From the IMG/VR virus record IMGVR_UViG_2675903330_000001: DNA of 36,648 bases; one strand, given 5' to 3'. Below the pieces are notes generated by a model. That model made no database searches. It had not been told where the DNA came from and was given only the letters and a program-made list of their open reading frames with translations. The position numbers and the translations under genes were made by a program. Of this stretch, positions 2,576 to 36,648 are shown piece after piece (the stretch's first letter is position 1; each line of letters opens with the position of its first letter). This DNA comes from a virus (lineage: Duplodnaviria; Heunggongvirae; Uroviricota; Caudoviricetes).

Positions 2576-3127
2576 ATGAAAGAAGAATTAACCCTTACAG
2601 AAATTTCCCGTTTATACGGCTATACAATTAACGCCGCTAAGAAATGGCAAGAACGAGGAATGCCATTTAATACCAATACCCGCCGCGTGCCAGCCAAAGA
2701 AGGAACAGAATGGGTCTTGAAAAATATCATCAACCCGCTTAAAGAAACTACTGTCAAGGAACAAATCGACGTAGAGAAATTACGCCGTGAGAGAGCATTA
2801 GCAGATGCAGCCGAACGAGAGAACCAGGAAGCGATGAATCTCCTGATTCCCGTCGGGTATGTGGAGCAGGAGCTAGCGGAATATTGCGGGAAAGTGAAGC
2901 AGACTATTTTGCAGATCGCCACAATCGATGCCCTAGAAATTCTCGAATCTGCCAATGACCAGAAAACATTGAAGAATAAGCTAAGAGAGATTATCGAGCG
3001 TCGTTTAAATGAAGTAGGGGACTTGTTCGAAAATGCAGATTTGGGAGAAGACGAGGAAGAAGAATTACCATTAATGGATGAACCGGAACAAGAACCAGAA
3101 GAAGACGATGAATTTGATGTGTCTTAA
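2576..3127 (+). CDS. Nu1-like winged-HTH DNA-binding protein, probable terminase small subunit
   Basis: GGAGG 8 nt upstream of the ATG at 2576. N-terminus LTLTEISRLYGYTINAAKKWQERGMP resembles the lambda Nu1 HTH (TIQNWQEQGMP); acidic C-terminal tail. A gpA-type large terminase (9781) normally pairs with a Nu1-type small subunit. Confidence 0.5.
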   Translation: MKEELTLTEISRLYGYTINAAKKWQERGMPFNTNTRRVPAKEGTEWVLKNIINPLKETTVKEQIDVEKLRRERALADAAERENQEAMNLLIPVGYVEQELAEYCGKVKQTILQIATIDALEILESANDQKTLKNKLREIIERRLNEVGDLFENADLGEDEEEELPLMDEPEQEPEEDDEFDVS

Positions 3128-3227
3128 AAATTAGATACTAAATATATACGTGAAGGATGTTGAGCTGGTCAACGTCTACGGGGGAGAACATCCCCCGCTA
3201 ACCTTTTTCTTATTTGAGGATTTACCT

Positions 3228-3329
3228 ATGGTTGAATTTTTGATTTATCTGGCTGTAGGATTAACTATCGTATATTCACTGGCACATATTGGCATTTCTA
3301 CTTTGTGTAACGCTTTCAAGTATCATTAA
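3228..3329 (+). CDS. small hydrophobic peptide (33 aa, one predicted TM helix)
   Basis: ATG with GAGGA 8 nt upstream; MVEFLIYLAVGLTIVYSLAHIGISTLCNAFKYH. Too short for the ORF track. Confidence 0.4.
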   Translation: MVEFLIYLAVGLTIVYSLAHIGISTLCNAFKYH

Positions 3330-3382
3330 TTAAATCGATGAATTGAACTATAGATGATGGTCGTTTTCAAAGAGGATTATCT

Positions 3383-3556
3383 ATGGATCTTTTTGTCTAC
3401 TTTGCTACTCTGCTGTTTTTGACTATCGTCGCTGGCATTAAATTGATTTTTATATCGCTGGTGGTGTTTTTCAAATTTCTAATCGGTACGCCTTACGGCT
3501 GGGTATGCTTCTTTTTGTTTATTCTTTTTAGTTGCTGTAAAAAGGATACTAAATAA
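3383..3556 (+). CDS. small hydrophobic membrane protein (57 aa, two predicted TM helices)
   Basis: ATG with AGAGGA upstream; MDLFVYFATLLFLTIVAGIKLIFISLVVFFKFLIGTPYGWVCFFLFILFSCCKKDTK. Too short for the ORF track. Confidence 0.45.
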   Translation: MDLFVYFATLLFLTIVAGIKLIFISLVVFFKFLIGTPYGWVCFFLFILFSCCKKDTK

Positions 3557-17631: not shown

Positions 17632-20600
17632 ATGCAGTCGATCCAATTTAAACGAACAAATGTTTCTGGCAAAAAACCAACGCCGGAACAATTACAGGTC
17701 GGTGAGGTAGCAATCAACCTTAAAGACCATGTTATTTTCACCAAAGACCGAGATCATGAAGTAGTTCAAATCTCTGTTTCTCCTGAAACTCACGCGGCAC
17801 TAGAATCTAAAGTTGATGCTAACAAACAAGAATTGGATAGCACAATTGCAGTAAATGACCGCAATATTCACGCTAAAGTAGATGAAATTAAACAAACTAC
17901 TGATGCAACCATCGCAGCAAATCACGCAGAAATTAACAATAAAGTTGATGTAATTAAACGCGAAACCGACGCGACAATCGAGGCCAATAAAAATAAAGCT
18001 GCTTCCGATCTTGCTGGTGTTAAAGCTGAATTGTCGGATACCATCAACGCTAATAAAAATGCGGCTGCTGTAGCAACTCAGGAACTGGACACCCGCATCA
18101 ATAAAAAAGTTGATGATATTAAATCCCGTACCGATGCAACCATCGTAAGCAATCACAAAGCAATCAATGACAAAGTTGATTTGATTAAGGCAGAAACTGA
18201 CCGCACTATCGCAGCAAATCACGCCTATGCGGAAAATCAGTTAACTGACACCTACAATAACCTTACTGGTGTGATTGCAGCCAATAAGCAAGAGGCAGCG
18301 GATAACGTCGCAGCATTAACCCGTGATGTTGAAGCCAAAAATACAGCAATTCATAGCAAAGTTGACAATAACAAGTCTTACACTGATTCTGAATTGGCAC
18401 GCTTAGAAAGCCGTATTGATGCAGCCGATGGATCAAGTGATGGTAAGTACATCAAAAAGCACGTAAACACTTGCACTGATGGCTATTTGCTGTCTAAGAC
18501 CGCAAACCCTTTTGATGATCCGAGTGCTCTTAATCTTGATTACTTTGGTGCATTTCGCATGAATGACCTGGCGGGTCATATTGCAATGATCTTGCATGTT
18601 CCGCACCCATCCGGCGTTAATCATGCTCGTGGTTTTGAGTTCACTTATGGGTCTAATCCGGTTCATACGGTAAGAACATACGGCTATGATGAATTGGGAC
18701 ATTTGGCATATTCTCACCGCATGTATCATGAAGGTGATAAACCTACTCCGGCTGAAATTGGCGCATATTCGAAAGCAGAAATTGACCGACTGTTCCAGAA
18801 GACGCTTAATTTTGGTATCGAGGGTGGTTGGTTTAAACTAGGCACTTTGACAATGCCACAACAACACGGTCGCACGGCTAAGATCCGTTTGGTTGGTGGT
18901 AACGGTTATAACGTAGGACATAATGGACAAGCCAATATTATCGAATTGGTGATTCGATGCGGCAACAATAGCCCGAAAGGTGTTGTATTCAATGCGTATT
19001 ATACTATTTGGCATTATGAACAACATTTTTGCGCTATTCCAACCGATGGCGACAATTACGATCTTTACGCTTACTACGGTGCACATACAGGATTTGTTTT
19101 AGCAGAATATCAAGTTTCTTCCGGTGGTGTTTCTTTAAACCTGTTGGATACTCCTGAATACCTGGGCGGTGAAAAACCTGTTGCAGATGAAATTTTTGAT
19201 GCTCTTAACATTTCATCGTTCAATAACTTTAGCAACCGTGGAACGTTAAATTTTGGTGGAAACCATCAAGGTCAATATGATATTGAGCATTTAAACGAAC
19301 AACCGACAAATGCTAAAAAGATGTTGCGTCGCTTCCGTAGTTGTGCTCCTGCCACTATCTGGCATGAGACAGTTGATGATAACAAGTATCGTCTTGCTAC
19401 TGGATACGAAGATACAAATCAGGAATTATTGCTGTCAGCAACATCCGGGTTACATATCAAGAAATTAACATTGGATGGCGGTGTTACTGGAAATTCTGGT
19501 ATTGATATTCGTCGAGGACCAAATGAAGCAAGCCATTTTAATTTCATGGATTATCGCACTGGACAAGATGTTCGTAATGGCTGGTTTGGCTTCGGTGATG
19601 GAACAACCAAAGATTTTATTTGGTGGAACGATAACGGTCAAAACTCGATAAACCTGATTGAAGACGGTGAATTACATATTACTGGCGGTAGAGGCCAGAA
19701 AATTGTAATGAATAGCGAAGTGGCATTATCTGAAAATGCTCGTTTGGCTGTCAAAGGTGGTAACTATGGTTTAATCCTTCGTAATGATGGTTCTAGCTTC
19801 CATATTCTTACTACCGATTTAAAAGATTCCTTTGGGACGTGGAATACTCGTAGACCATTTAGTTATGATTTCGCCGAAGGTGGATTAGATCTAGGTGGCA
19901 CAGCTACCGCACGCTGTTTACATCTGGGAATTGATGGTAGCACCCGCATCGAAGATAATATGGTGTTTAGATCAGGGTCTCGTCAGTCAATGGACTATAT
20001 TGAATTAATCCATTGGGGTAACAGTAATACAGGACGCAATAACGTTTTGAGTATGCGAGATTCCAAAGGTTTCTTGGCTGAATTTGAACGCGTGGGGGGT
20101 ACTAACGGCGTTAAAACCAGATTCTTTGGCGAAACATTCACTGATGGTACATTATACCTAAATCAGATGAATAATAGCTCTGAACGATTCTCTATTAATA
20201 ATTGGGGAAATTCAGAAGTTGGTCGCGCGGCAGTGATGGAAGTCGGTGATTCCAAAGGTTATCACTTCTATACTGAACGTAGGACAGATAACAGTTTGAT
20301 GTTTGATGTTGCTGGCGCTTTTACTGTGCATGGACCTTCCGGGATTACTATCAAAAACTCTGCTGGTGCTCGCCACGTCTGGTTTAGAGATGATAGCGAT
20401 ACGGAAAAGGCTGTTATCTGGGCTACAGATGAGGGTATTTTACATATTCGCAATAACCACGGTGGACAATTTACACATCACTTCCAGGGCGCGATGATTA
20501 AACTGGAAGGGCGTGTTCCTTATGCCGCAGATCAAGGACTTATCCGTGGTGAGGTTTCTGGTGGTGCATATGTTGCATGGAGAGACCGACCTGCTGGTTT

Positions 20601-21156
20601 GTTGGTTGACTGTCAACAAAGCGTTGATAGTGCTCATGCTATTTGGAAAGCGGTTGATTGGGGGCGTAACTACATCGCTGCTATGGACGTTCATTGTCCC
20701 GGTGATAGTAATAATACTGCGGCAGCGGTTCTTCATGTTCAGGGTGCTGATTATCAATTCCATGCAAGTGGAGAATTTCATGCCACTGGTAACGGAAACT
20801 TTAACGATGTTTATATTCGTTCCGATCGTCGTCTGAAAATTAATGTTGAAGATTACGAAGAAAATGCGGTGGATAAGGTAAATAAACTCAAAGTTAAAAC
20901 CTACGATAAAGTTAAATCTCTTAATGACCGAGAAGTTATAGGTCATGAGATTGGTATTATCGCACAGGATTTACAAGAGGTATTACCGGAAGCTGTTAAA
21001 ACCGCAAAAATTGGTGGTTTTGATAACCCAGAAGAAATTTTAACAATTTCAAACTCCGCAGTGAACGCGCTTTTAATTAAAGCGGTCCAAGAAATGAGCG
21101 AAGAAAATAAACTTCTTCGTGAACGTCTTGCTGCAATTGAAGCTAAATTAGGGTAA
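17632..21156 (+). CDS. side (L-shaped-type) tail fiber with C-terminal intramolecular chaperone domain
   Basis: 1174 aa; N-terminal about 21-aa repeats (KVD-IK--TDATI-AN); C-terminus SDRRLKINVEDYEENAVDKVNKLKVKTYD ... LLRERLAAIEAKLG is typical of the self-cleaving endosialidase-type chaperone (peptidase S74). Confidence 0.75.
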   Translation: MQSIQFKRTNVSGKKPTPEQLQVGEVAINLKDHVIFTKDRDHEVVQISVSPETHAALESKVDANKQELDSTIAVNDRNIHAKVDEIKQTTDATIAANHAEINNKVDVIKRETDATIEANKNKAASDLAGVKAELSDTINANKNAAAVATQELDTRINKKVDDIKSRTDATIVSNHKAINDKVDLIKAETDRTIAANHAYAENQLTDTYNNLTGVIAANKQEAADNVAALTRDVEAKNTAIHSKVDNNKSYTDSELARLESRIDAADGSSDGKYIKKHVNTCTDGYLLSKTANPFDDPSALNLDYFGAFRMNDLAGHIAMILHVPHPSGVNHARGFEFTYGSNPVHTVRTYGYDELGHLAYSHRMYHEGDKPTPAEIGAYSKAEIDRLFQKTLNFGIEGGWFKLGTLTMPQQHGRTAKIRLVGGNGYNVGHNGQANIIELVIRCGNNSPKGVVFNAYYTIWHYEQHFCAIPTDGDNYDLYAYYGAHTGFVLAEYQVSSGGVSLNLLDTPEYLGGEKPVADEIFDALNISSFNNFSNRGTLNFGGNHQGQYDIEHLNEQPTNAKKMLRRFRSCAPATIWHETVDDNKYRLATGYEDTNQELLLSATSGLHIKKLTLDGGVTGNSGIDIRRGPNEASHFNFMDYRTGQDVRNGWFGFGDGTTKDFIWWNDNGQNSINLIEDGELHITGGRGQKIVMNSEVALSENARLAVKGGNYGLILRNDGSSFHILTTDLKDSFGTWNTRRPFSYDFAEGGLDLGGTATARCLHLGIDGSTRIEDNMVFRSGSRQSMDYIELIHWGNSNTGRNNVLSMRDSKGFLAEFERVGGTNGVKTRFFGETFTDGTLYLNQMNNSSERFSINNWGNSEVGRAAVMEVGDSKGYHFYTERRTDNSLMFDVAGAFTVHGPSGITIKNSAGARHVWFRDDSDTEKAVIWATDEGILHIRNNHGGQFTHHFQGAMIKLEGRVPYAADQGLIRGEVSGGAYVAWRDRPAGLLVDCQQSVDSAHAIWKAVDWGRNYIAAMDVHCPGDSNNTAAAVLHVQGADYQFHASGEFHATGNGNFNDVYIRSDRRLKINVEDYEENAVDKVNKLKVKTYDKVKSLNDREVIGHEIGIIAQDLQEVLPEAVKTAKIGGFDNPEEILTISNSAVNALLIKAVQEMSEENKLLRERLAAIEAKLG

Positions 21157-21194
21157 TTGGAAAGCGGGGAGAAATCTCCGCTAAGGATTCTTAT

Positions 21195-21491
21195 ATGGGA
21201 TATTGGGTAAGTAGTGAAATTAATACTAAAATCGATGCTTTAAAATGGCATGTATTTGATATTCCTAACGGCTATGGTACTGCTCGTGCTGGTGTCGCTG
21301 TAATGCGTCATAATGCTGGTGGTGGGTGGTCTGATGCACATATTAACGTAGATGGTTTGACCGTTGCTCGTCGTCGTGGTGGGACCAATTGGGGATCTAC
21401 TATAAATTCGTTTGTTCCTGCTGGCTGCACCGTCTCCTTTGGTTTAGGGGGTGAAGGTGGTGTTGAATATTTTAAATTCATGGAGTTTTAA
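21195..21491 (+). CDS. small protein, paralog 1 of a tandem triplet (98 aa)
   Basis: AAGGA RBS; shares W-x-FDIPNG(Y/W), Gly-rich loops and a C-terminal YFKF-type motif with the next two genes. Confidence 0.6.
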   Translation: MGYWVSSEINTKIDALKWHVFDIPNGYGTARAGVAVMRHNAGGGWSDAHINVDGLTVARRRGGTNWGSTINSFVPAGCTVSFGLGGEGGVEYFKFMEF

Positions 21492-21493
21492 TT

Positions 21494-21799
21494 ATGGCTG
21501 GATGGATAAATCAAAGAATGTCAAACGCTATTAGTATTTGGGCTAATGGTGGATATTTTGATATCCCCAACGGCTGGGTTACTGATTCATGCGGAATTGT
21601 TTTTGCTCATATGGAAGCCATTAACGGTGCTGGTGATCTTGATTCTGAATTGGCTGTAAATGGATTGATTGAATCAGGTCATCATGCTGGTGATGCTGGG
21701 AGTTGGGGCGCTAGTTCTTTAGTTGGCGCTGGTGCTACCGTTAGCTTTACATTGGGTAAAGGTAGTTTGCATTATTTTAAATTCAGGAGAATGCACTAA
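21494..21799 (+). CDS. small protein, paralog 2 of a tandem triplet (101 aa)
   Basis: GGAG RBS; starts 3 nt after the upstream stop; same motifs. Confidence 0.6.
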   Translation: MAGWINQRMSNAISIWANGGYFDIPNGWVTDSCGIVFAHMEAINGAGDLDSELAVNGLIESGHHAGDAGSWGASSLVGAGATVSFTLGKGSLHYFKFRRMH

Positions 21800-22101
21800 T
21801 GGCATTTTGGGTAGATGGCGCTTTGGGGAATAGGGCGGGTAAAGCAAATCAAGGATGGTTTGATATTCCTAACGGTTGGACAGCCGACGCTTTCGGGACT
21901 ATTTCATTCTGTGCTCATTCTTCCGGTGGTGGCGGTGGTGACTCTGAATTGCTTATTCATGGTTTGTGTGTTTCTGGAAGCCATAAGGGTCATGATTGGG
22001 GACAGATTCATTCTTGTATTGCACCGCAAGGGGCGGTAATTACCGTTAGCACAAATAGGGGGATCGCTCATCTTCGTTATAGACGTTTGAGCAACCGCTA
22101 A
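21799..22101 (+). CDS. small protein, paralog 3 of a tandem triplet (100 aa)
   Basis: AGGAGA RBS; start overlaps the upstream stop (TAATG); same motifs, with a GGGGG loop. Confidence 0.6.
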   Translation: MAFWVDGALGNRAGKANQGWFDIPNGWTADAFGTISFCAHSSGGGGGDSELLIHGLCVSGSHKGHDWGQIHSCIAPQGAVITVSTNRGIAHLRYRRLSNR

Positions 22102-22155
22102 ATAAATAGAATTACGGGTATGTGCCCTATTGTTTAAAATAGAAGGAAAAGAATA

Positions 22156-31397: not shown

Positions 31398-31442
31398 CTA
31401 AATAATTTTGCCATTAAACTATATAAAAATATCGGGGGCGTA

Positions 31443-31721
31443 ATGACTGAAATTATATATGGCGGTATCGGTGTTATCGCCTTAATTTGCGGTGGATTAT
31501 GGAGACTTCACCGAAATCAATTAGCAACTGAAAATAGATTGTCGAAATTGGAATCCAGCGACGCATTGTTAAACCAGAAGTTTGAGACGATGCAGAATAA
31601 CCATACTCAGATTGCTGAACGTGTTTACCAAATGGAACAAACACTACACGGTATAGAGAAGAAAGTGGTTGCGATGGACGCTAAGTTTGACCAAGTTCTC
31701 GACATACTCAAACAAAAATAA
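31443..31721 (+). CDS. membrane-anchored coiled-coil protein (XhlA-like or i-spanin-like lysis protein)
   Basis: N-terminal TM helix (IIYGGIGVIALICGGLW) followed by coiled-coil; begins the lysis region. Confidence 0.4.
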   Translation: MTEIIYGGIGVIALICGGLWRLHRNQLATENRLSKLESSDALLNQKFETMQNNHTQIAERVYQMEQTLHGIEKKVVAMDAKFDQVLDILKQK

Positions 31722-31740
31722 TAATAAAAGGGGTGAATAT

Positions 31741-31911
31741 ATGAAGAATAAACTTAAGAAATATTTTGGTTATCTCTTGATTGTCGCCCTCACTTATAAC
31801 GTAGCAATTAGACCTCTGCTTACGTCCTTTGGGCTTGAACTCCCGGCTATGACCGTGGATGAACAATTGCTAAGGACACTGGCGGGGGTCTTTTCGTTAT
31901 TAGGGGGCTAA
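31741..31911 (+). CDS. putative holin (56 aa small membrane protein)
   Basis: AAAGGGG RBS; a hydrophobic helix plus a second amphipathic segment; lies in the lysis cassette. Confidence 0.45.
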   Translation: MKNKLKKYFGYLLIVALTYNVAIRPLLTSFGLELPAMTVDEQLLRTLAGVFSLLGG

Positions 31912-31912
31912 C

Positions 31913-32596
31913 ATGGCAACCAGTACCAATAAACGAAACGCTCTAAGGACTAAGAAAGCGTTACGGCAATGGTCTGAAAAGGCAACCGATACATTCGAAA
32001 GGGCACTAGGGGAAGGGGCGATCTTTGCTTCCAGAGCACTCCAGAAGAAGATTAACAAGAATGTTGATAGACCTACTCGCTGGACTCAGCAAGCTGTAGG
32101 TAATACCAACTACAAGAACCGATCAGGGACGAGACACCAAATCTTCATCAAGGGCGCAAGGGATAAGGATAAGAAGATCGGCAGTCAGGACGACTATCTG
32201 AAACACTATTTCGATGGGGGCAAAATCAATAAGCTAGTTCCAATCGCCAACGGTAAGGTCTTAGACGCCCACGGGAACATTAAGGCCATCAAAGGCGGTA
32301 AGATGATGCGTAACCTCGAAAACGGCAACTTCATCAAGGTAGAGAACAAGGAAGGGACTTTTATCATGAAGAAGTACAAGCCTAAGAAATCCCGAACCAA
32401 ACGCGCTAGGAATGGATCGGCGGTGGCAAAACGTCGCTTAGAGAAACGCATACAGAAACAGAGCAAGCGAATTGTTGCCGTTAAATCGGATAAAATTTCT
32501 ACTCGTTATTCGACGCTAGGATCGTGGGAAAGCAACGAAGCAATGATGCTTGAAAACATCAATAAGCACATTAAATCGCGCATGAAATACGTTTAA
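31913..32596 (+). CDS. hypothetical highly basic protein (227 aa)
   Basis: Translationally coupled to the upstream gene; Lys/Arg-rich; no motif recognised. Confidence 0.5.
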   Translation: MATSTNKRNALRTKKALRQWSEKATDTFERALGEGAIFASRALQKKINKNVDRPTRWTQQAVGNTNYKNRSGTRHQIFIKGARDKDKKIGSQDDYLKHYFDGGKINKLVPIANGKVLDAHGNIKAIKGGKMMRNLENGNFIKVENKEGTFIMKKYKPKKSRTKRARNGSAVAKRRLEKRIQKQSKRIVAVKSDKISTRYSTLGSWESNEAMMLENINKHIKSRMKYV

Positions 32597-32634
32597 TCCA
32601 TAAATACCCTCATAGAAACTTATGGGGGTATAAC

Positions 32635-32982
32635 ATGGCTAAAAATATTTTCACTGAATTTCCTACTTATCCGGTCGATCAGCTTTCCGGTATTTTTATT
32701 AATGGCATTAGCCCAGAATCAATGACCTATGATTTTGAGGCGAAGAGAGTCCAACATAAACAATTCAAGCAGATGATCCGCGATGATGGTAACGGGCTAG
32801 TGTTTTGTGTTGCGACACTCGCTAAACGTCCTAAGTATCGCTTTCGTGTAGGGCAGGAGATTGATGTAGTTAATCCTTACAACTTCAATTGTATTGGCGA
32901 TACACGCGCGGTGTGTGTAGGGACAACTAACTATTATATCAAGGGACTTAGATTTACCGGCTATCTTATGCAATATATCTAA
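32635..32982 (+). CDS. hypothetical protein (115 aa)
   Basis: Intact ORF with RBS. Confidence 0.5.
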   Translation: MAKNIFTEFPTYPVDQLSGIFINGISPESMTYDFEAKRVQHKQFKQMIRDDGNGLVFCVATLAKRPKYRFRVGQEIDVVNPYNFNCIGDTRAVCVGTTNYYIKGLRFTGYLMQYI

Positions 32983-32991
32983 GGGGGTAAT

Positions 32992-33345
32992 ATGTTAAGT
33001 AAGCATTTTTCTCGCAAGGAATTTAAATGTAAATGCGGAAAATGTGATTATGATACAATCGACGCTGAATTACTGGTGATTCTTGAGGATGTACGAGAGC
33101 ACTTCGGTAAACCAGTGATTATTAACAGTGGCAACCGTTGCCCGACTCATAACAAGAATGTAGGCGGGGCAGCCAATAGCTATCACGTTCGAGGCCGCGC
33201 GGCTGACATTGTTATCAAGGGTGTCTCGCCTGATATTGTTCATGCTTATCTTGATGGGAAATATCCTACTCAATACGGCTTAGGAAAATATAAAACCTTT
33301 ACGCATATTGATTCCAGATCAAAAAAATCACGGTGGAATGGATAA
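32992..33345 (+). CDS. peptidase M15-family cell-wall hydrolase (putative endolysin)
   Basis: Zn-binding motifs of the M15 fold: NSYHVRGRAADI and the downstream HID; 117 aa; terminator directly after. Confidence 0.65.
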   Translation: MLSKHFSRKEFKCKCGKCDYDTIDAELLVILEDVREHFGKPVIINSGNRCPTHNKNVGGAANSYHVRGRAADIVIKGVSPDIVHAYLDGKYPTQYGLGKYKTFTHIDSRSKKSRWNG

Positions 33346-33351
33346 AACAAA

Positions 33352-33376
33352 AGCGCCTCTGGTGGGCGCTTTTTTG
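33352..33376 (+). terminator. rho-independent terminator
   Basis: AGCGCC-TCTGGTG-GGCGCT followed by T5. Confidence 0.7.
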
Positions 33377-33709
33377 TTAGAATATGCTGGCGACGTTAGC
33401 TATATTTCTGACCATTTTTTCATTATAGACAAATATACCGCAGATGATAAAGTGGTATTCGACGAAGTTGATCCGTCTCTGGTTGAAGCAATGAAAGAAC
33501 CTGAGATCGTCATTGAAGAAACAAAAGAAGAATCTCCAGCAGTTGAACCAGTGGTCGAAGAAGTTAAGTCAGATGTTGAAGAAGCACCGGAAGTTAAAGT
33601 GGAATCTCCGGTAGCCAACATTTTCTCTGACGAAGCAGAGCATCGTTCTCCGGCACATGACACTGATTCATTTTGCGATCTTACTGGTTTCCAAAACTAC
33701 AATAATTAA
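33374..33709 (+). CDS. hypothetical acidic protein (start uncertain)
   Basis: The frame is open from inside the endolysin gene across the terminator; the real start is probably downstream of it (TTG at 33374 or an internal ATG). Very acidic Glu/Val/Pro-rich sequence. Confidence 0.3.
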   Translation: MLEYAGDVSYISDHFFIIDKYTADDKVVFDEVDPSLVEAMKEPEIVIEETKEESPAVEPVVEEVKSDVEEAPEVKVESPVANIFSDEAEHRSPAHDTDSFCDLTGFQNYNN

Positions 33710-33755
33710 TTCTTATAAATAGTAGTGAATATTATTTTATTGAGGATTCACTACT

Positions 33756-34754
33756 ATGAATACTACTTTAGCAAAGGATATCGAATTTACCGCAAAAAGC
33801 AAACGTGCGACCCCTCCGGTCGAATATGAAACCAGAATCATTAAAGTTTGTCAAGCGCATGGATGGTTATACAGTGGTTTTGTGCTTCCTGTAAAGAAAC
33901 CATTCCAGAACACCAAAGTTTGCATAGAAGTTAACGGAAAGGTTAAAACGCCATGTATTAGTCATGTTCTAACTGGTCAGTTTACTGGCAAAGATAGAGT
34001 ATCACCGCCTAAGAAGAAGTTTAGATTTACCGAAGAAGAACACTTAGAAAACGCTCGCAAGTTCTACAAGCCGATAGGGTGGGATGTGTTAGGTCTGGCT
34101 GAACCTTATCAGGGTGTTGACACTAAACTAATTCTTCGTTGTAAGTGCCACGGAAAGATTCACAAGAAAGGTGATTTACACAATAACCGCAGACAAGGCG
34201 GGTTAACATGCCCTTTGGTTAGGGGTGTACTTAAATCAATTCAGAATGGTAGAAAACAGGTTATCAGAAACAAGTTTGCACAGCGCCCTATGCACTTTTA
34301 TCTAATTCGTGTTGGCGAGAAGTTTTTCAAATATGGAATTACCACTCGCAAAGATCCGATGCAACGGGTAAGAGAACACCAGAAGCACACCAGCGAGAAA
34401 ATCACCTTTGAATGCTCACATTTGTTTAACATTGGATGGAAAGCTGGTGATTTAGAAATGGGGATTAAAAAGAATATTCAGGGCAAGAAAATCCCACGTA
34501 AGGTAATGAATAGCGGATTCACAGAAACGCTACCGATTAGCAAGCTGAAAGATGTTAAATCATTCATCAATGAATACATCCACACCAACCCATCTAAGCC
34601 AATGTATTTTGATGATACCAACGCAATCAATCTGAACAACTACATTAGTGATGAAGACATAGAACGAGATTTATCGCAGTGGATGAATGCACCGTTAGCT
34701 GATTTAACACCGGAAGACCTAGAACTCGATTTAAGCCCTTTAGAGGCTCTTTAA
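33756..34754 (+). CDS. hypothetical protein with Cys/His-rich N-terminal region and GIY-YIG-like (T5orf172-type) C-terminal domain
   Basis: GAGGA RBS; FYLIRVGEKFFKYGITTRKDPMQRVREH resembles the GIY-YIG / T5orf172 core; several Cys and His upstream (CQAHGW, CIEVNG, RCKCHGKIHKKGD, LTCP). Confidence 0.45.
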   Translation: MNTTLAKDIEFTAKSKRATPPVEYETRIIKVCQAHGWLYSGFVLPVKKPFQNTKVCIEVNGKVKTPCISHVLTGQFTGKDRVSPPKKKFRFTEEEHLENARKFYKPIGWDVLGLAEPYQGVDTKLILRCKCHGKIHKKGDLHNNRRQGGLTCPLVRGVLKSIQNGRKQVIRNKFAQRPMHFYLIRVGEKFFKYGITTRKDPMQRVREHQKHTSEKITFECSHLFNIGWKAGDLEMGIKKNIQGKKIPRKVMNSGFTETLPISKLKDVKSFINEYIHTNPSKPMYFDDTNAINLNNYISDEDIERDLSQWMNAPLADLTPEDLELDLSPLEAL

Positions 34755-34770
34755 TACAATTAAATTAAAA

Positions 34771-34790
34771 AGGGGTACAGATGTACCCCT
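34771..34790. terminator. bidirectional terminator hairpin between convergent genes
   Basis: GGGGTAC-AGAT-GTACCCC with an A-run upstream and T-rich sequence downstream; serves the integrase on the minus strand and gene 33756-34754 on the plus strand. Confidence 0.6.
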
Positions 34791-34827
34791 TAAAGTGTTT
34801 AGCTCGTTATACGTCGATTTAGGCCGC

Positions 34828-36495
34828 TTAAATTCCAAATTCCTGTAATGGACCTGGTATTTCCTCTTCTGGTTTCCAGTCTTTATCTGTCAGCATGTCT
34901 AAACATGGATGCAGAACAAGCCCGTTACTCTCCAGAATCTGCCTATCATTGATAGTTTTCAAATCGACAAAGATTTGTCCTTTCCTCGTTCCTCTTGAAT
35001 TTTCTATTACAACTCTCTGGGTCTTTCCATCGATGTATTCCAGCACAAACAAGTTTTTATTTCTGTCAATCCTGCTACACCCGATCCGCTTTAGAGCTTG
35101 CTTAATCTTAAACCGGACCTTTAGTCGTTCCTCGTTATAAACATCTTCTAAATCAAATTCTGCGAGCTTCTCCCAGCCTTGAGAGTCCACAGAATACATT
35201 TCCTCTTCTGCCATCTTGATCTGATTGTAGAGTGTTTCACGCTCGCTATTGAGGGTAGTAATCTGATCGGCTAGCTCCTTCGTTGCTCCTGTCATAGCAG
35301 AAAGGGCAATCAGGTTATCAATCTTGCGTGATATCTCATCAACCTGTACTTTCAACGCCGGAACCGGATTAGCCTTGTCCTCAGCAATCCATATTTTATC
35401 AGCCAGCAATTGCAATACAGCTTTCTCTAATTGATCACCTCGAAAACTCCAGTTTGGATGCTCGCAATCAAGTCTACGTGAACGGGTCGCATCACATGTA
35501 TAACGATACTGGTCAGAACGTTTGTTCGTTCCCTTCACTTTAACCATAGCGCAACCGCAATGATCACATTTCAATAGGCCAATACCACTAAGCAGGGGGA
35601 TCGGTTTAACTTCTTCCTTGTCTCCAAAGTTCCATGCTCTAGCACCAATATTTTTCTTAAGGTGATAGAACGTAGCATCATCAATAACACGAGGGTAATA
35701 ATCCTTTAACTCATAGTTAACACCATCTACAGAGACTTCCTTGATACCAATCAAAGCGCGGGTATGGAACAACCTTTCAACCATTGCCCGTGACCATTTT
35801 GAATGCTTCTTATTACTAACCGCTGGTGGCGGTGTATATGTCTCGTTAAGGTGATCCAGTATTTCGGCGGTTGAACGTCCATTCTTCCGTAATTCCACAA
35901 TCTCCTGAACAACAGGGAAGTATGTAGGATGAGGCAACACATAACCGGAAGTGGTATCCGTCCACCACATATTCTTTCCAACTTCCTCGATTGCCACTGC
36001 CGGATTCTGGGGATTTTCTTGATGGGCTTTAATCTTAATCAGTGCGCTTGAGTTAGTACGATTGCGCTTAGTCTGGCTTTCCTCATTACCACGGATGAAT
36101 AAAAGGATGGAGAACATCAGGTCCATCGGGTTAGCGGTAACAGTATCCAGCGAGTAGATCTTGTTATCCATGCCAGTAACAATGGTTATCCCCCTACGGA
36201 TGATTGAAAGGAATAACTCCTGCGCACTGACAATATCGGCACGGGATAAGCGGTCCAAGTTTTCAATGAATAGCCAGCTACCAACAGGAACGGATCTACC
36301 AATTGCATCAAGGAAACGAGATAGCGCCCCTGTTTTGGAGTTAGCACCCTTAAACGCAGATACACCCAGATCCTGATAATCATTTACCAGTTCAAGGTCA
36401 TACTTTGCCGCAACCTCTCTCGCCATCCTGATTTGTCGTTCATAACTCGAACCATCATTCTGACGCATAGACGAGAAGCGAATATACGAATACAG
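34828..36495 (-). CDS. large serine recombinase (prophage integrase), 5' end interrupted by IS1
   Basis: Resolvase-type catalytic region, recombinase domain, zinc ribbon (CDHCGC ... CDATRSRRLDCEH) and coiled-coil. The catalytic Y-x-R-x-S motif (LYSYIRFSS) lies upstream of the first ATG (36468) and runs directly into the IS1 terminus at 36496 with no start codon in between. Confidence 0.8.
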   Translation of the reverse strand: MYSYIRFSSMRQNDGSSYERQIRMAREVAAKYDLELVNDYQDLGVSAFKGANSKTGALSRFLDAIGRSVPVGSWLFIENLDRLSRADIVSAQELFLSIIRRGITIVTGMDNKIYSLDTVTANPMDLMFSILLFIRGNEESQTKRNRTNSSALIKIKAHQENPQNPAVAIEEVGKNMWWTDTTSGYVLPHPTYFPVVQEIVELRKNGRSTAEILDHLNETYTPPPAVSNKKHSKWSRAMVERLFHTRALIGIKEVSVDGVNYELKDYYPRVIDDATFYHLKKNIGARAWNFGDKEEVKPIPLLSGIGLLKCDHCGCAMVKVKGTNKRSDQYRYTCDATRSRRLDCEHPNWSFRGDQLEKAVLQLLADKIWIAEDKANPVPALKVQVDEISRKIDNLIALSAMTGATKELADQITTLNSERETLYNQIKMAEEEMYSVDSQGWEKLAEFDLEDVYNEERLKVRFKIKQALKRIGCSRIDRNKNLFVLEYIDGKTQRVVIENSRGTRKGQIFVDLKTINDRQILESNGLVLHPCLDMLTDKDWKPEEEIPGPLQEFGI

Positions 36496-36648
36496 GGTAA
36501 TGACTCCAACTTATTGATAGTGTTTTATGTTCAGATAATGCCCGATGACCTTGTCATACAGCTCCACCGATTTTGAGAACGACAGCGACTTCCGTCCCAG
36601 CCGTGCCAGGTGCTGCCTCAGATTCAGGTTATGCCGCTCAATTCGCTG
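36496..36648 (-). mobile_element. insB: IS1 (partial; insB-proximal inverted repeat and 3' end of insB), continues beyond the window
   Basis: GGTAATGACTCCAACTTATTGATAGTGTTTTATGTTCAGATAATGCCCGATGAC ... is the reverse complement of the IS1 right end; the minus strand encodes the InsB C-terminus (...[20 protein letters not shown]...). Confidence 0.9.

Follow-up and report, generated by a model that had tools for sequence, protein, structure and literature searches.

A homing-type nuclease gene beside T4-like gene debris in a temperate phage of Escherichia coli

The window analysed here, the whole 36,648-nt stretch of IMG/VR record IMGVR_UViG_2675903330_000001, is an Escherichia coli temperate phage or prophage. 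Between its lysis genes and its integrase lies a 332-amino-acid (aa) open reading frame (ORF), here called HEG2, which belongs to a described family of homing-type nucleases with CapR-type DNA-binding repeats and a T5orf172 domain, and which sits in an unusual setting. HEG2 has the domain make-up and fold of such a nuclease and is under purifying selection; the DNA beside it is of T4-like origin, the slot it occupies is polymorphic and its leader is conserved. We give a probability of roughly 0.6 to the reading that the locus is what is left of a trimmed T4-like island, with a nuclease that works as a homing or exclusion endonuclease at a specific site. Its expression is probably restricted to times when a T4-like phage supplies late transcription. 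A sequence-only reading of the window had located the 332-aa ORF exactly and offered three roles for it (defence or exclusion gene, homing-endonuclease-like element or regulator), of which the second fits best. The same reading had joined HEG2 and an upstream acidic ORF into an autonomous two-gene cargo unit. That unit has to be given up because the acidic ORF is chimeric, part inh fragment and part antisense of a gene that has been deleted, and the annotation is corrected to one real CapR and T5orf172 homing-type nuclease gene beside gene debris.

HEG2 and its leader

HEG2 (7 Cys, 11 His) consists of two DNA-binding repeats, a nuclease domain and an acidic tail (Table 1). The segment HFYLIRVGEKFFKYGITTRKDPMQRVREH, from which a GIY-YIG-like nuclease had been proposed, is present in the protein, and the nuclease call proved right. 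HEG2 matches PHROG 681 "endonuclease" (aa 86-292, E 3e-20), has the predicted fold and keeps the invariant motif residues. Searches with hidden Markov models were less uniform. In Pfam, HEG2 matched CapR at aa 102-134 (E 0.014, 16 bits vs a gathering cut-off of 24.2) and MUG113 at aa 192-273 (E 0.13, 13.3 bits vs a cut-off of 22.3), with no match to the T5orf172 model at E ≤ 1, but its relatives P0028 and P0095 and a copy of a second nuclease gene, HEG1 (at locus L022), exceed the cut-off for MUG113 or T5orf172. A profile search of 1.84 billion representatives returned 2003 relatives. Those that were checked contain one to five CapR/DUF723 repeats and several also match MUG113 or T5orf172, while profile-linked relatives with two to five repeats reach 58-135 bits for CapR. 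NCBIfam contained no match for HEG2, and sequence searches of the PDB, made with the single protein and with an 18-sequence profile, gave nothing meaningful. In PADLOC-DB v2 there was no significant match, only a 22-44-aa GIY motif match to PD-Lambda-1 (E 0.005-0.007); since this is motif-level noise, HEG2 is not filed as a known defence system, and membership in one finds no backing in PADLOC or NCBIfam.

The nuclease fold became apparent from fold comparison rather than from sequence search. We aligned 18 homologue clusters, 24-99% identical and drawn from E. coli, Salmonella and Proteus prophage-sized contigs. Besides the six nuclease residues listed in Table 1, Cys 32, Cys 129 and Cys 152 are invariant across these homologues, and C131 is kept in at least 90% of them; 396 near-identical HEG2 member sequences are known. 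The AlphaFold model built from this alignment (mean predicted local distance difference test score (pLDDT) 79.5) contains two N-terminal modules at about aa 20-75 and aa 93-150, each a helix with a three-stranded sheet, followed by an alpha/beta domain at aa 179-277. Compared with viral models (BFVD) by Foldseek, it gave 120 matches at E ≤ 1e-3, with E down to 2e-15 and the best from phage JEP8 of Krischvirus, the group of RB49-like relatives of T4. The named top matches are phage proteins labelled CapR-homology, zinc-ribbon, GIY-YIG, T5orf172 or "homing endonuclease", and the structure prediction thus supplied the GIY-YIG-type fold that had been suspected. FYLIR (with Y182) and FKYGIT (with K192 and G194) lie on model strands 179-186 and 190-196 as (G)IY-like and YIG-like motifs. 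Placed by motif order, R204, E234 and E257 (in GFTETL) would be equivalent to R27/E75 of I-TevI or to the catalytic Glu of Odn. HEG2 is, apparently, a catalytically competent CapR and T5orf172 homing-type nuclease.

A zinc-binding, Cys/His-rich N-terminus had also been proposed. The N-terminus does hold a pair of CapR-type zinc-finger-like repeats, but only three of the four canonical ligands are left in one of them. The zinc motif of CapR is CxxC...CxC (PMC10448857); in HEG2 this set is incomplete, with Val in place of the fourth Cys in repeat 2 and no such pattern in repeat 1. His 132, 136 or 142 might stand in for the missing ligand of repeat 2. An N-terminal motif, AKDIEF...GFVLP, is common to HEG2, HEG1 and the Krischvirus protein JK32_00173.

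The ratio of nonsynonymous to synonymous substitution rates (dN/dS) for HEG2 is 0.09-0.25 wherever synonymous sites are not saturated, from which we conclude that the gene is maintained by selection. The acidic tail had been recognized correctly (13 D+E vs 1 K+R in the last 48 residues). Its extreme end (...PLADLEPEDLELDLSPLEAL) is conserved on all prophage variants, even at 37% identity, and the tail is missing from the Krischvirus JK32 homologue, making it a feature of the prophage version. It resembles a docking peptide, and a comparison with the C-terminus of Krischvirus gp33 (the clamp-binding tail) found no resemblance.

The leader of HEG2 combines a T4-type late-promoter motif, TATAAATA, with a hairpin that covers the Shine-Dalgarno sequence (Table 1). 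Folded alone, the leader reaches -15.2 kcal/mol (z -3.75), and a read-through transcript from upstream keeps the hairpin (z -2.8). In a transcript begun at 33727, the start expected for a T4-type late promoter, the hairpin is lost (-5.1 kcal/mol, z +0.5). In 13 leaders from homologues with 39-99% protein identity, neither the ATG nor the TAAATA and stem cores vary. As the motif, five have TATAAATA, seven AATAAATA and one ACTAAATA, so that (T/A)ATAAATA occurs in 12 of 13. Stem cells are paired in 86.5% of cases, compared with 15-58% in slid registers, and three hairpin pairs show double-sided (compensatory) changes. In the last 30 kb of the window, TATAAATA has no other copy. A late promoter within a hairpin that sequesters the ribosome-binding site is the hallmark of I-TevI, I-TevII, I-TevIII, segB and Aeh1 mobE (Edgell et al. 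2010, PMC2988022), and the HEG2 leader has the same arrangement at the sequence level. The Krischvirus inh leader contains CTCAATAAATA and the uvsW leader TATAAATA; between these and the HEG2 leader, the only common stretch is the 11-mer CTCAATAAATA, shared with the inh leader (E 0.06).

In a pattern scan of IMG/VR, the same leader also preceded bodies of 390-391 aa and stubs of seven codons. Four IMG/VR prophage contigs (L029, L048, L049 and L053) have an intact leader followed by a 7-codon ORF, the nuclease body being lost or frameshifted. HEG1 has a different upstream element, GCCTATAAG(A/C/T)TAAA, which lies about 10-15 nt before its Shine-Dalgarno sequence (L006 2560-2606; L007 4525-4586, minus strand), is kept in six diverged loci and may be the HEG1 promoter.

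T4-like DNA around the nuclease gene

The acidic ORF upstream of HEG2 exists mechanically and is as acidic as had been described (30 D+E of 111 residues, isoelectric point 4.05, rich in E, V and P), but it is not a gene of its own. Its frame runs over two remnants and five junction codons (Table 1), and its proposed TTG start sits in the T-run of the endolysin terminator; this chimeric make-up and the start inside a terminator are what speak against a separate gene. We found no Shine-Dalgarno sequence before the candidate starts, no convincing promoter and no PADLOC match to the ORF. It is debris, made of an inh piece and the antisense of a deleted nuclease gene, and is probably not expressed in the window allele. 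A genuine small acidic protein or anti-defence gene was considered and rejected for this window on account of the chimeric make-up. In one relative (L003 1936-2307, WP_282868968.1) PGAP calls the same chimeric ORF a coding sequence (CDS), likely an annotation artefact because the start lies in the end of the endolysin gene and the frame crosses the terminator hairpin.

The larger remnant comes from inh, the gene for the inhibitor of prohead protease. When positions 31400-36648 were compared by megablast with 50,697 phage records, inh was the only kind of match: 77 records match, mostly at 95-99% identity, and among the matches listed the nucleotide identity of the fragment to Krischvirus inh is 97.3-98.8%, including Ec_Makalu_002, GEC-3S and some 60 further Krischvirus records at 98.4-98.8%. 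In the GEC-3S locus the match covers positions 3001-3258 of an inh gene that spans 2754-3479 (YP_009118857, 241 aa). The window therefore does not hold a complete inh gene: the start, the promoter and the C-terminal third are missing, and codons 84-169 are all that is left.

The smaller remnant is the end of HEG1, a CapR and T5orf172 nuclease gene of about 193 aa that is deleted in the window and intact at five related loci (L004, L006, L007, L022 and L025). In L006 and L004 this 193-aa gene, on the minus strand, separates the endolysin from the inh fragment and is a GIY-YIG nuclease family protein in RefSeq, with Pfam matches to CapR and T5orf172; the copy in strain CUVET21-37 has the same annotation. 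A base-by-base alignment to L006 places the HEG1 stump of the window directly against inh codon 84. In L006 itself (strain ETEC1717) a longer stretch of inh survives, from codon 49 to codon 186, at 99% identity to phages ECD7 and Whisky.

Inh' fragments with matching ends, at codon 49 and about codon 187, are still open in diverged prophages, where dN/dS is 0.15-0.4. There they are 70-79% identical to any known phage inh, compared with 98-99% in the window lineage. These data would fit either selection on Inh' as an expressed product or conversion, time and again, by phages not yet sampled.

Neighbourhoods of the diverged HEG2 homologues all occupy the same slot between endolysin and integrase, with varying cargo. 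Inh' accompanies a 331-aa homologue in one Sequence Read Archive (SRA) assembly (L007; 70% nucleotide identity to Krischvirus, HEG1 on the minus strand), a 330-aa homologue in another (L025; 79%, with HEG1) and a 325-aa homologue in Proteus (L019; inh' of 146 aa). Two E. coli loci involve hoc: L022 has HEG1, a piece of hoc that is 68% identical in nucleotides to the GEC-3S gene, and a 335-aa homologue, and L024 has an inh' of 52 aa, a 150-aa Ig-like ORF read as hoc' without BLAST support and a 419-aa homologue. Others keep T4-like uvsW intact, in Salmonella (L017/L018) with HEG1 and a 331-aa homologue, and in E. coli (L020/L021) together with uvsW.1 (70-75% nucleotide identity, nearest Krischvirus), HEG1 and a 394-aa homologue. 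A third SRA assembly (L023) has a truncated uvsW that diverges from the nuclease gene across 71 bp, which is the uvsW/inh spacing of GEC-3S. The pieces follow the T4 gene order uvsW.1-uvsW-inh-hoc, and the uvsW-type island occurs in 17 further complete E. coli genomes. The intact UvsW helicase genes in these temperate Salmonella and E. coli prophages (L017 1772-3277 and L020 1480-3276) encode 496-501 aa, and a nuclease gene is joined, stop to start (TAATG), to the ATG of uvsW.

A member of the nuclease family is also found in a virulent phage at the corresponding place. Shigella phage JK32, a Krischvirus, carries the 361-aa CapR and T5orf172 gene JK32_00173 between uvsW and uvsW.1 (L027 1820-2905). 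Its product aligns end to end with the 394-aa prophage variant (34% identity over 366 aa, E 1e-64); against the nuclease domain of HEG2 its identity is 35%. GEC-3S has no gene at this position, only a 43-bp gap; the family thus acts as a present-or-absent insert in that T4-like region, a polymorphism of the kind typical for free-standing homing endonucleases. Among the 50,697 phage records, no T4-like phage has HEG1 or HEG2 next to inh. A scan of IMG/VR by protein profile and leader pattern likewise returned no T4-like contig, only prophage-sized contigs and chance matches, including a 239-kb contig with an unrelated ORF.

In the E. coli population the cargo is present or absent at a conserved locus. 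The slot was matched in 57 of 5,426 complete genomes, with the full window-type cargo in 18 of the 57, and deletion alleles exist. In the single short allele sampled (L005), an internal deletion joins 33504 to 34709, removing the gene but leaving the tail codons and 70 bp of inh'. E. coli prophages with backbone proteins 95-98% identical to those of the window (integrase 98%) have nuclease bodies that are only 39% or 58% identical, and the inh' scrap is 98-99% identical to Krischvirus, compared with 92-97% for the backbone among prophage alleles. Nuclease cassettes are swapped between a fixed leader and a fixed tail, and the pattern is consistent with flanking DNA being exchanged or co-converted. 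That cargo and prophage diverged together by vertical descent was rejected for the E. coli alleles in view of the difference between backbone (95-98%) and nuclease (39-58%).

Away from the slot, window positions 18495-22117, with the tail-fibre ORF (17632-21156) and two ORFs of about 100 aa after it, are 79-94% identical in nucleotides to the T-even gp37 (long-tail-fibre distal subunit) region, for example 94.5% over 1 kb in vB_EcoM_JE01. This region is a second locus of DNA exchange between the temperate phage and Straboviridae. Together, the identity of the inh scrap, the tail-fibre locus and the sister islands with uvsW, inh and hoc pieces document that a temperate siphophage family and virulent T4-like phages have recently exchanged DNA.

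The position between a lysis gene and the integrase, as given by the sequence-only reading, agrees with the annotation of the slot. Nucleotide identity to sister prophages with other cargo ends at about 33341-33379, in the endolysin terminator, and returns at about 34667, within the tail-coding end of the nuclease gene; between these breakpoints the leader alone is still recognizable. Terminators had been placed on both sides of the pair. The upstream hairpin has T-runs that let termination work on both strands, but the downstream one terminates the integrase gene only, an assignment made because its T-run is on the minus strand alone. Between the holin-like ORFs and the endolysin lie two conserved genes, one for a very basic 227-aa protein (31913-32596) with a weak PHROG "minor tail protein" match (E 4e-4) and one for a 115-aa protein (32635-32982) to which Pfam, PHROG and NCBIfam scans assigned no family. 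One relative (L023 1836-2873) has a further CapR-type gene, of 345 aa, between the conserved 115-aa gene and the endolysin, so a second spot of the lysis region also takes such genes. In one genome, E. coli strain 39EVA (H63), an IS1A transposase is inserted within the slot.

Table 1. Features of the slot between endolysin and integrase, in window coordinates
Feature	Position	Strand	Description	Basis
M15 endolysin	32992-33345		left neighbour of the slot; Peptidase_M15_3, E 9e-28	Pfam
Endolysin terminator	33349-33373		G+C-rich hairpin with T-runs on both sides; left edge of the variable slot	terminator scan and sequence
Acidic ORF	33374 (TTG) to 33709 (stop)	+	reading frame over two remnants and 5 junction codons	
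HEG1 remnant	33377-33433	-	stop and last 18 codons (...YNEKMVRNIANVASIF*)	junction alignment vs L006
inh fragment	33435-33692 (258 bp)	+	internal fragment, codons 84-169 of 241	megablast and boundary alignment
Late-promoter motif	33714-33721	+	TATAAATA, T4-type consensus; 34 nt upstream of ATG, overlaps 5' arm of hairpin	
RNA hairpin	33719-33757	+	12 bp, arms 33719-33730 and 33746-33757; covers Shine-Dalgarno GAGGA (33742-33746) and AU of AUG	
HEG2	33756-34754	+	332-aa CDS, free-standing homing-endonuclease-type protein	
HEG2 repeat 1	33756-33980	+	aa 1-75; DNA-binding, CapR-like helix and 3-stranded sheet without Cys ligands	AlphaFold, pLDDT 83-93
HEG2 repeat 2	34032-34220	+	aa 93-155; DNA-binding, CapR-homology zinc-finger-like, C129xC131...C152, fourth Cys missing	
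HEG2 nuclease domain	34281-34589	+	aa 176-278; T5orf172/GIY-YIG, Y182, K192, G194, R204, E234, E257 invariant	
HEG2 acidic tail	34608-34751	+	aa 285-332 (...PLADLTPEDLELDLSPLEAL); DNA from ~34667 is the conserved right flank	
Integrase terminator	34770-34791	-	hairpin; right edge of the slot	terminator scan
Integrase	34828-36468	-	large serine recombinase; Resolvase, Recombinase and Zn_ribbon_recom; right neighbour of the slot	

Homing, exclusion and other explanations

Under the reading we favour, the two CapR-type repeats would read a long DNA site and the T5orf172/GIY-YIG domain would cut nearby. In the lysogen the gene would be essentially silent, owing to the upstream terminator, the lack of a good sigma-70 promoter and the sequestered ribosome-binding site. 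During infection by a T4-like phage, or its co-replication with the induced prophage, the gp55, gp33 and clamp of that phage would start transcripts about 6 nt after TATAAATA, inside the 5' arm, so that the hairpin could not form and the nuclease would be translated. The enzyme would then cut its cognate site in T4-like genomes free of the nuclease, most likely in the uvsW-inh-hoc region, and repair of the break against the scraps in the temperate phage would lead to gene conversion and marker exclusion. Such conversion would be the reason for the 98-99% identity of the inh scrap to present-day Krischvirus genes. RB49-like phages are not known to carry hydroxymethylcytosine in place of cytosine. 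Unmodified cytosine in these phages would ease late transcription from, and recombination with, unmodified prophage DNA. The mechanism would account for the leader, for the JK32 insert and for the scraps, both their gene order and the high identity of the inh piece. The role of the nuclease would lie in selfish homing or competition between phages, with, possibly, a side effect resembling defence. A leader of late promoter and hairpin, if it does work in a prophage, would give a simple switch set off by infection.

Several points weigh against this reading. We infer all four steps, from silence through late switch-on and cutting to repair. The scores of HEG2 in its own sequence stay below the Pfam gathering level, one leader has ACTAAATA in place of the consensus, covariation in the hairpin is modest with one pair mismatched in 3 of 13 leaders, and TATAAATA is not enriched in the window (6 copies vs 2.6 expected, with 7 of 100 shuffles reaching 6). 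To the right of HEG2 the prophage shows no homology to T4, and it is therefore a poor donor for classical two-sided homing. In complete E. coli genomes, most prophages of the family have lost HEG2. In tblastn searches of the phage records, relatives of HEG1 and HEG2 reach at best 24-35% amino-acid identity and none is closer, so the nuclease genes appear to be long-term residents of the prophage lineage rather than recent T4 imports.

Prophage-specific nuclease bodies with no close phage relative would suit a domesticated defence gene, one kept to guard the lysogen or the replicating prophage by cutting T4-like DNA and serving exclusion or defence instead of its own spread. A defence or exclusion role that benefits the lysogen would be a sensible variant of the favoured reading: morons and defence genes typically sit between lysis genes and integrase, purifying selection acts on the gene in the prophage lineage, the acidic tail is confined to prophages and not found on the Krischvirus homologue, the leader could tie expression to infection, and specificity modules change quickly on an unchanged backbone, much as in an arms race. 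We nevertheless consider domesticated defence rather unlikely, given that PADLOC yields no significant match (a 22-aa PD-Lambda-1 GIY motif, E 0.005) and NCBIfam nothing, that the full cargo is present in only 18 of 57 slot genomes, that L005 is a deletion allele and that some leaders precede 7-codon stubs. A more elaborate proposal, a domesticated anti-Krischvirus device operated by the invader itself, strikes us as unlikely. Here a promoter mimicking those of the late machinery and the hairpin block would make expression depend on the invader, the enzyme would cut the invader's uvsW-inh-hoc region, the T4 scraps would be bait for recombination into dead-end hybrids, or the source of an Inh' decoy for prohead protease where the allele is longer, and the swappable DNA-binding body between the fixed leader and acidic tail would be an arms-race specificity cassette.

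The opposite view, that the locus is decaying T4-derived junk and the 332-aa ORF is open only for lack of elapsed time, draws on the loss of HEG1 and of both ends of inh' from the window allele, on the frequency of further deletion alleles and on the general cycle of homing-endonuclease genes through invasion, decay and loss (PMC2988022). It is improbable beside dN/dS values of 0.09-0.25, synonymous sites that are saturated between full-length homologues retaining all motif residues, a leader hairpin conserved with compensatory changes and 396 near-identical members. HEG2 could instead bind DNA without cutting it, recognizing a site of the invading phage or its own leader in the manner of CapR and repressing, for example, head genes near inh and hoc. 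CapR-type repeats are present, the adjoining scraps are head genes, I-TevI autorepresses at its own late promoter (PMC2988022), and CapR of PLE is a homing-endonuclease-derived repressor of the ICP1 capsid operon (PMC8096241). PLE CapR, however, shares only the CapR DNA-binding domain with homing endonucleases (PMC8096241), whereas HEG2 keeps a whole nuclease domain whose GIY-YIG/T5orf172 motif residues are all invariant in 18 homologues, and we regard a purely regulatory role as very improbable. Hardly any weight goes to a two-component anti-head system in which an expressed Inh fragment, as a decoy, would poison the prohead protease or core of T4-like phages alongside the nuclease. The open Inh' fragments with fixed boundaries (codons 49 to about 187) and dN/dS of 0.15-0.4 across diverged prophages, annotated as CDSs by PGAP, would suit such a system, but the low dN/dS could come from phage donors, other alleles have hoc' or no fragment at that place, and the fragment in the window is cut to codons 84-169 and has no ATG, Shine-Dalgarno sequence or promoter.

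Comparison with known systems

One comparison is with SLX1 and At-HIGLE (PDB 7wme, 6seh and 7cq2), eukaryotic structure-specific nucleases that are 13-16% identical to HEG2 and have other partner domains; they support the fold and nothing further. Krischvirus Inh is comparable with the body of the acidic ORF, at 98-99% nucleotide identity over 258 bp, which in the window is fused to unrelated sequence. CapR of PLE, a Vibrio cholerae satellite, is a DNA-binding module taken from phage T5orf172 homing endonucleases and aimed at head genes of a lytic phage (Netter et al. 2021, PMC8096241). Like HEG2, it is a CapR-type module on an integrated element; unlike HEG2, with its apparently intact nuclease domain, it is a repressor and has the DNA-binding domain only.

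Among the T-even phages, I-TevI and the Seg proteins belong, as HEG2 does, to the GIY-YIG superfamily. Homing-endonuclease genes of these phages place the late promoter so that only late transcripts escape the hairpin at the ribosome-binding site, and bring about co-conversion of flanking markers and marker exclusion (PMC2988022). I-TevI binds DNA through a zinc finger and a helix-turn-helix, in contrast to the CapR repeats of HEG2, and the element that hosts HEG2 is a temperate phage without T4 late transcription factors; HEG2 has no sequence-level match to solved structures.

JK32_00173 is a full-length homologue, found in the uvsW/inh neighbourhood of which the prophage island is a copy, with an N-terminal AKDIEF...GFILP module that it shares with HEG2. 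It differs from HEG2 in belonging to a virulent phage, in ending ...NPENPLYLTE without an acidic tail and in its upstream region, which has a terminator and a plain Shine-Dalgarno sequence and neither TATAAATA nor a hairpin.

In architecture, HEG2 matches the T5orf172 homing endonucleases of ICP1 and other phages, which are likewise free-standing proteins with repeated CapR-type modules followed by a C-terminal T5orf172 nuclease of the GIY-YIG subfamily. T5orf172 homing endonucleases with CapR zinc-finger repeats sit at the boundaries of phage genetic exchange (Barth et al. 2023, PMC10448857), and this location, together with module shuffling, is common to the ICP1-type genes and HEG2. HEG2 departs from them in its home, a temperate prophage of enterobacteria, and in its degenerate zinc site, added acidic tail and T-even-style leader, and any homing by it is putative. 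Nuclease genes lying exactly at the boundaries of exchange extend the recombination-boundary idea to the divide between temperate and virulent phages in E. coli.

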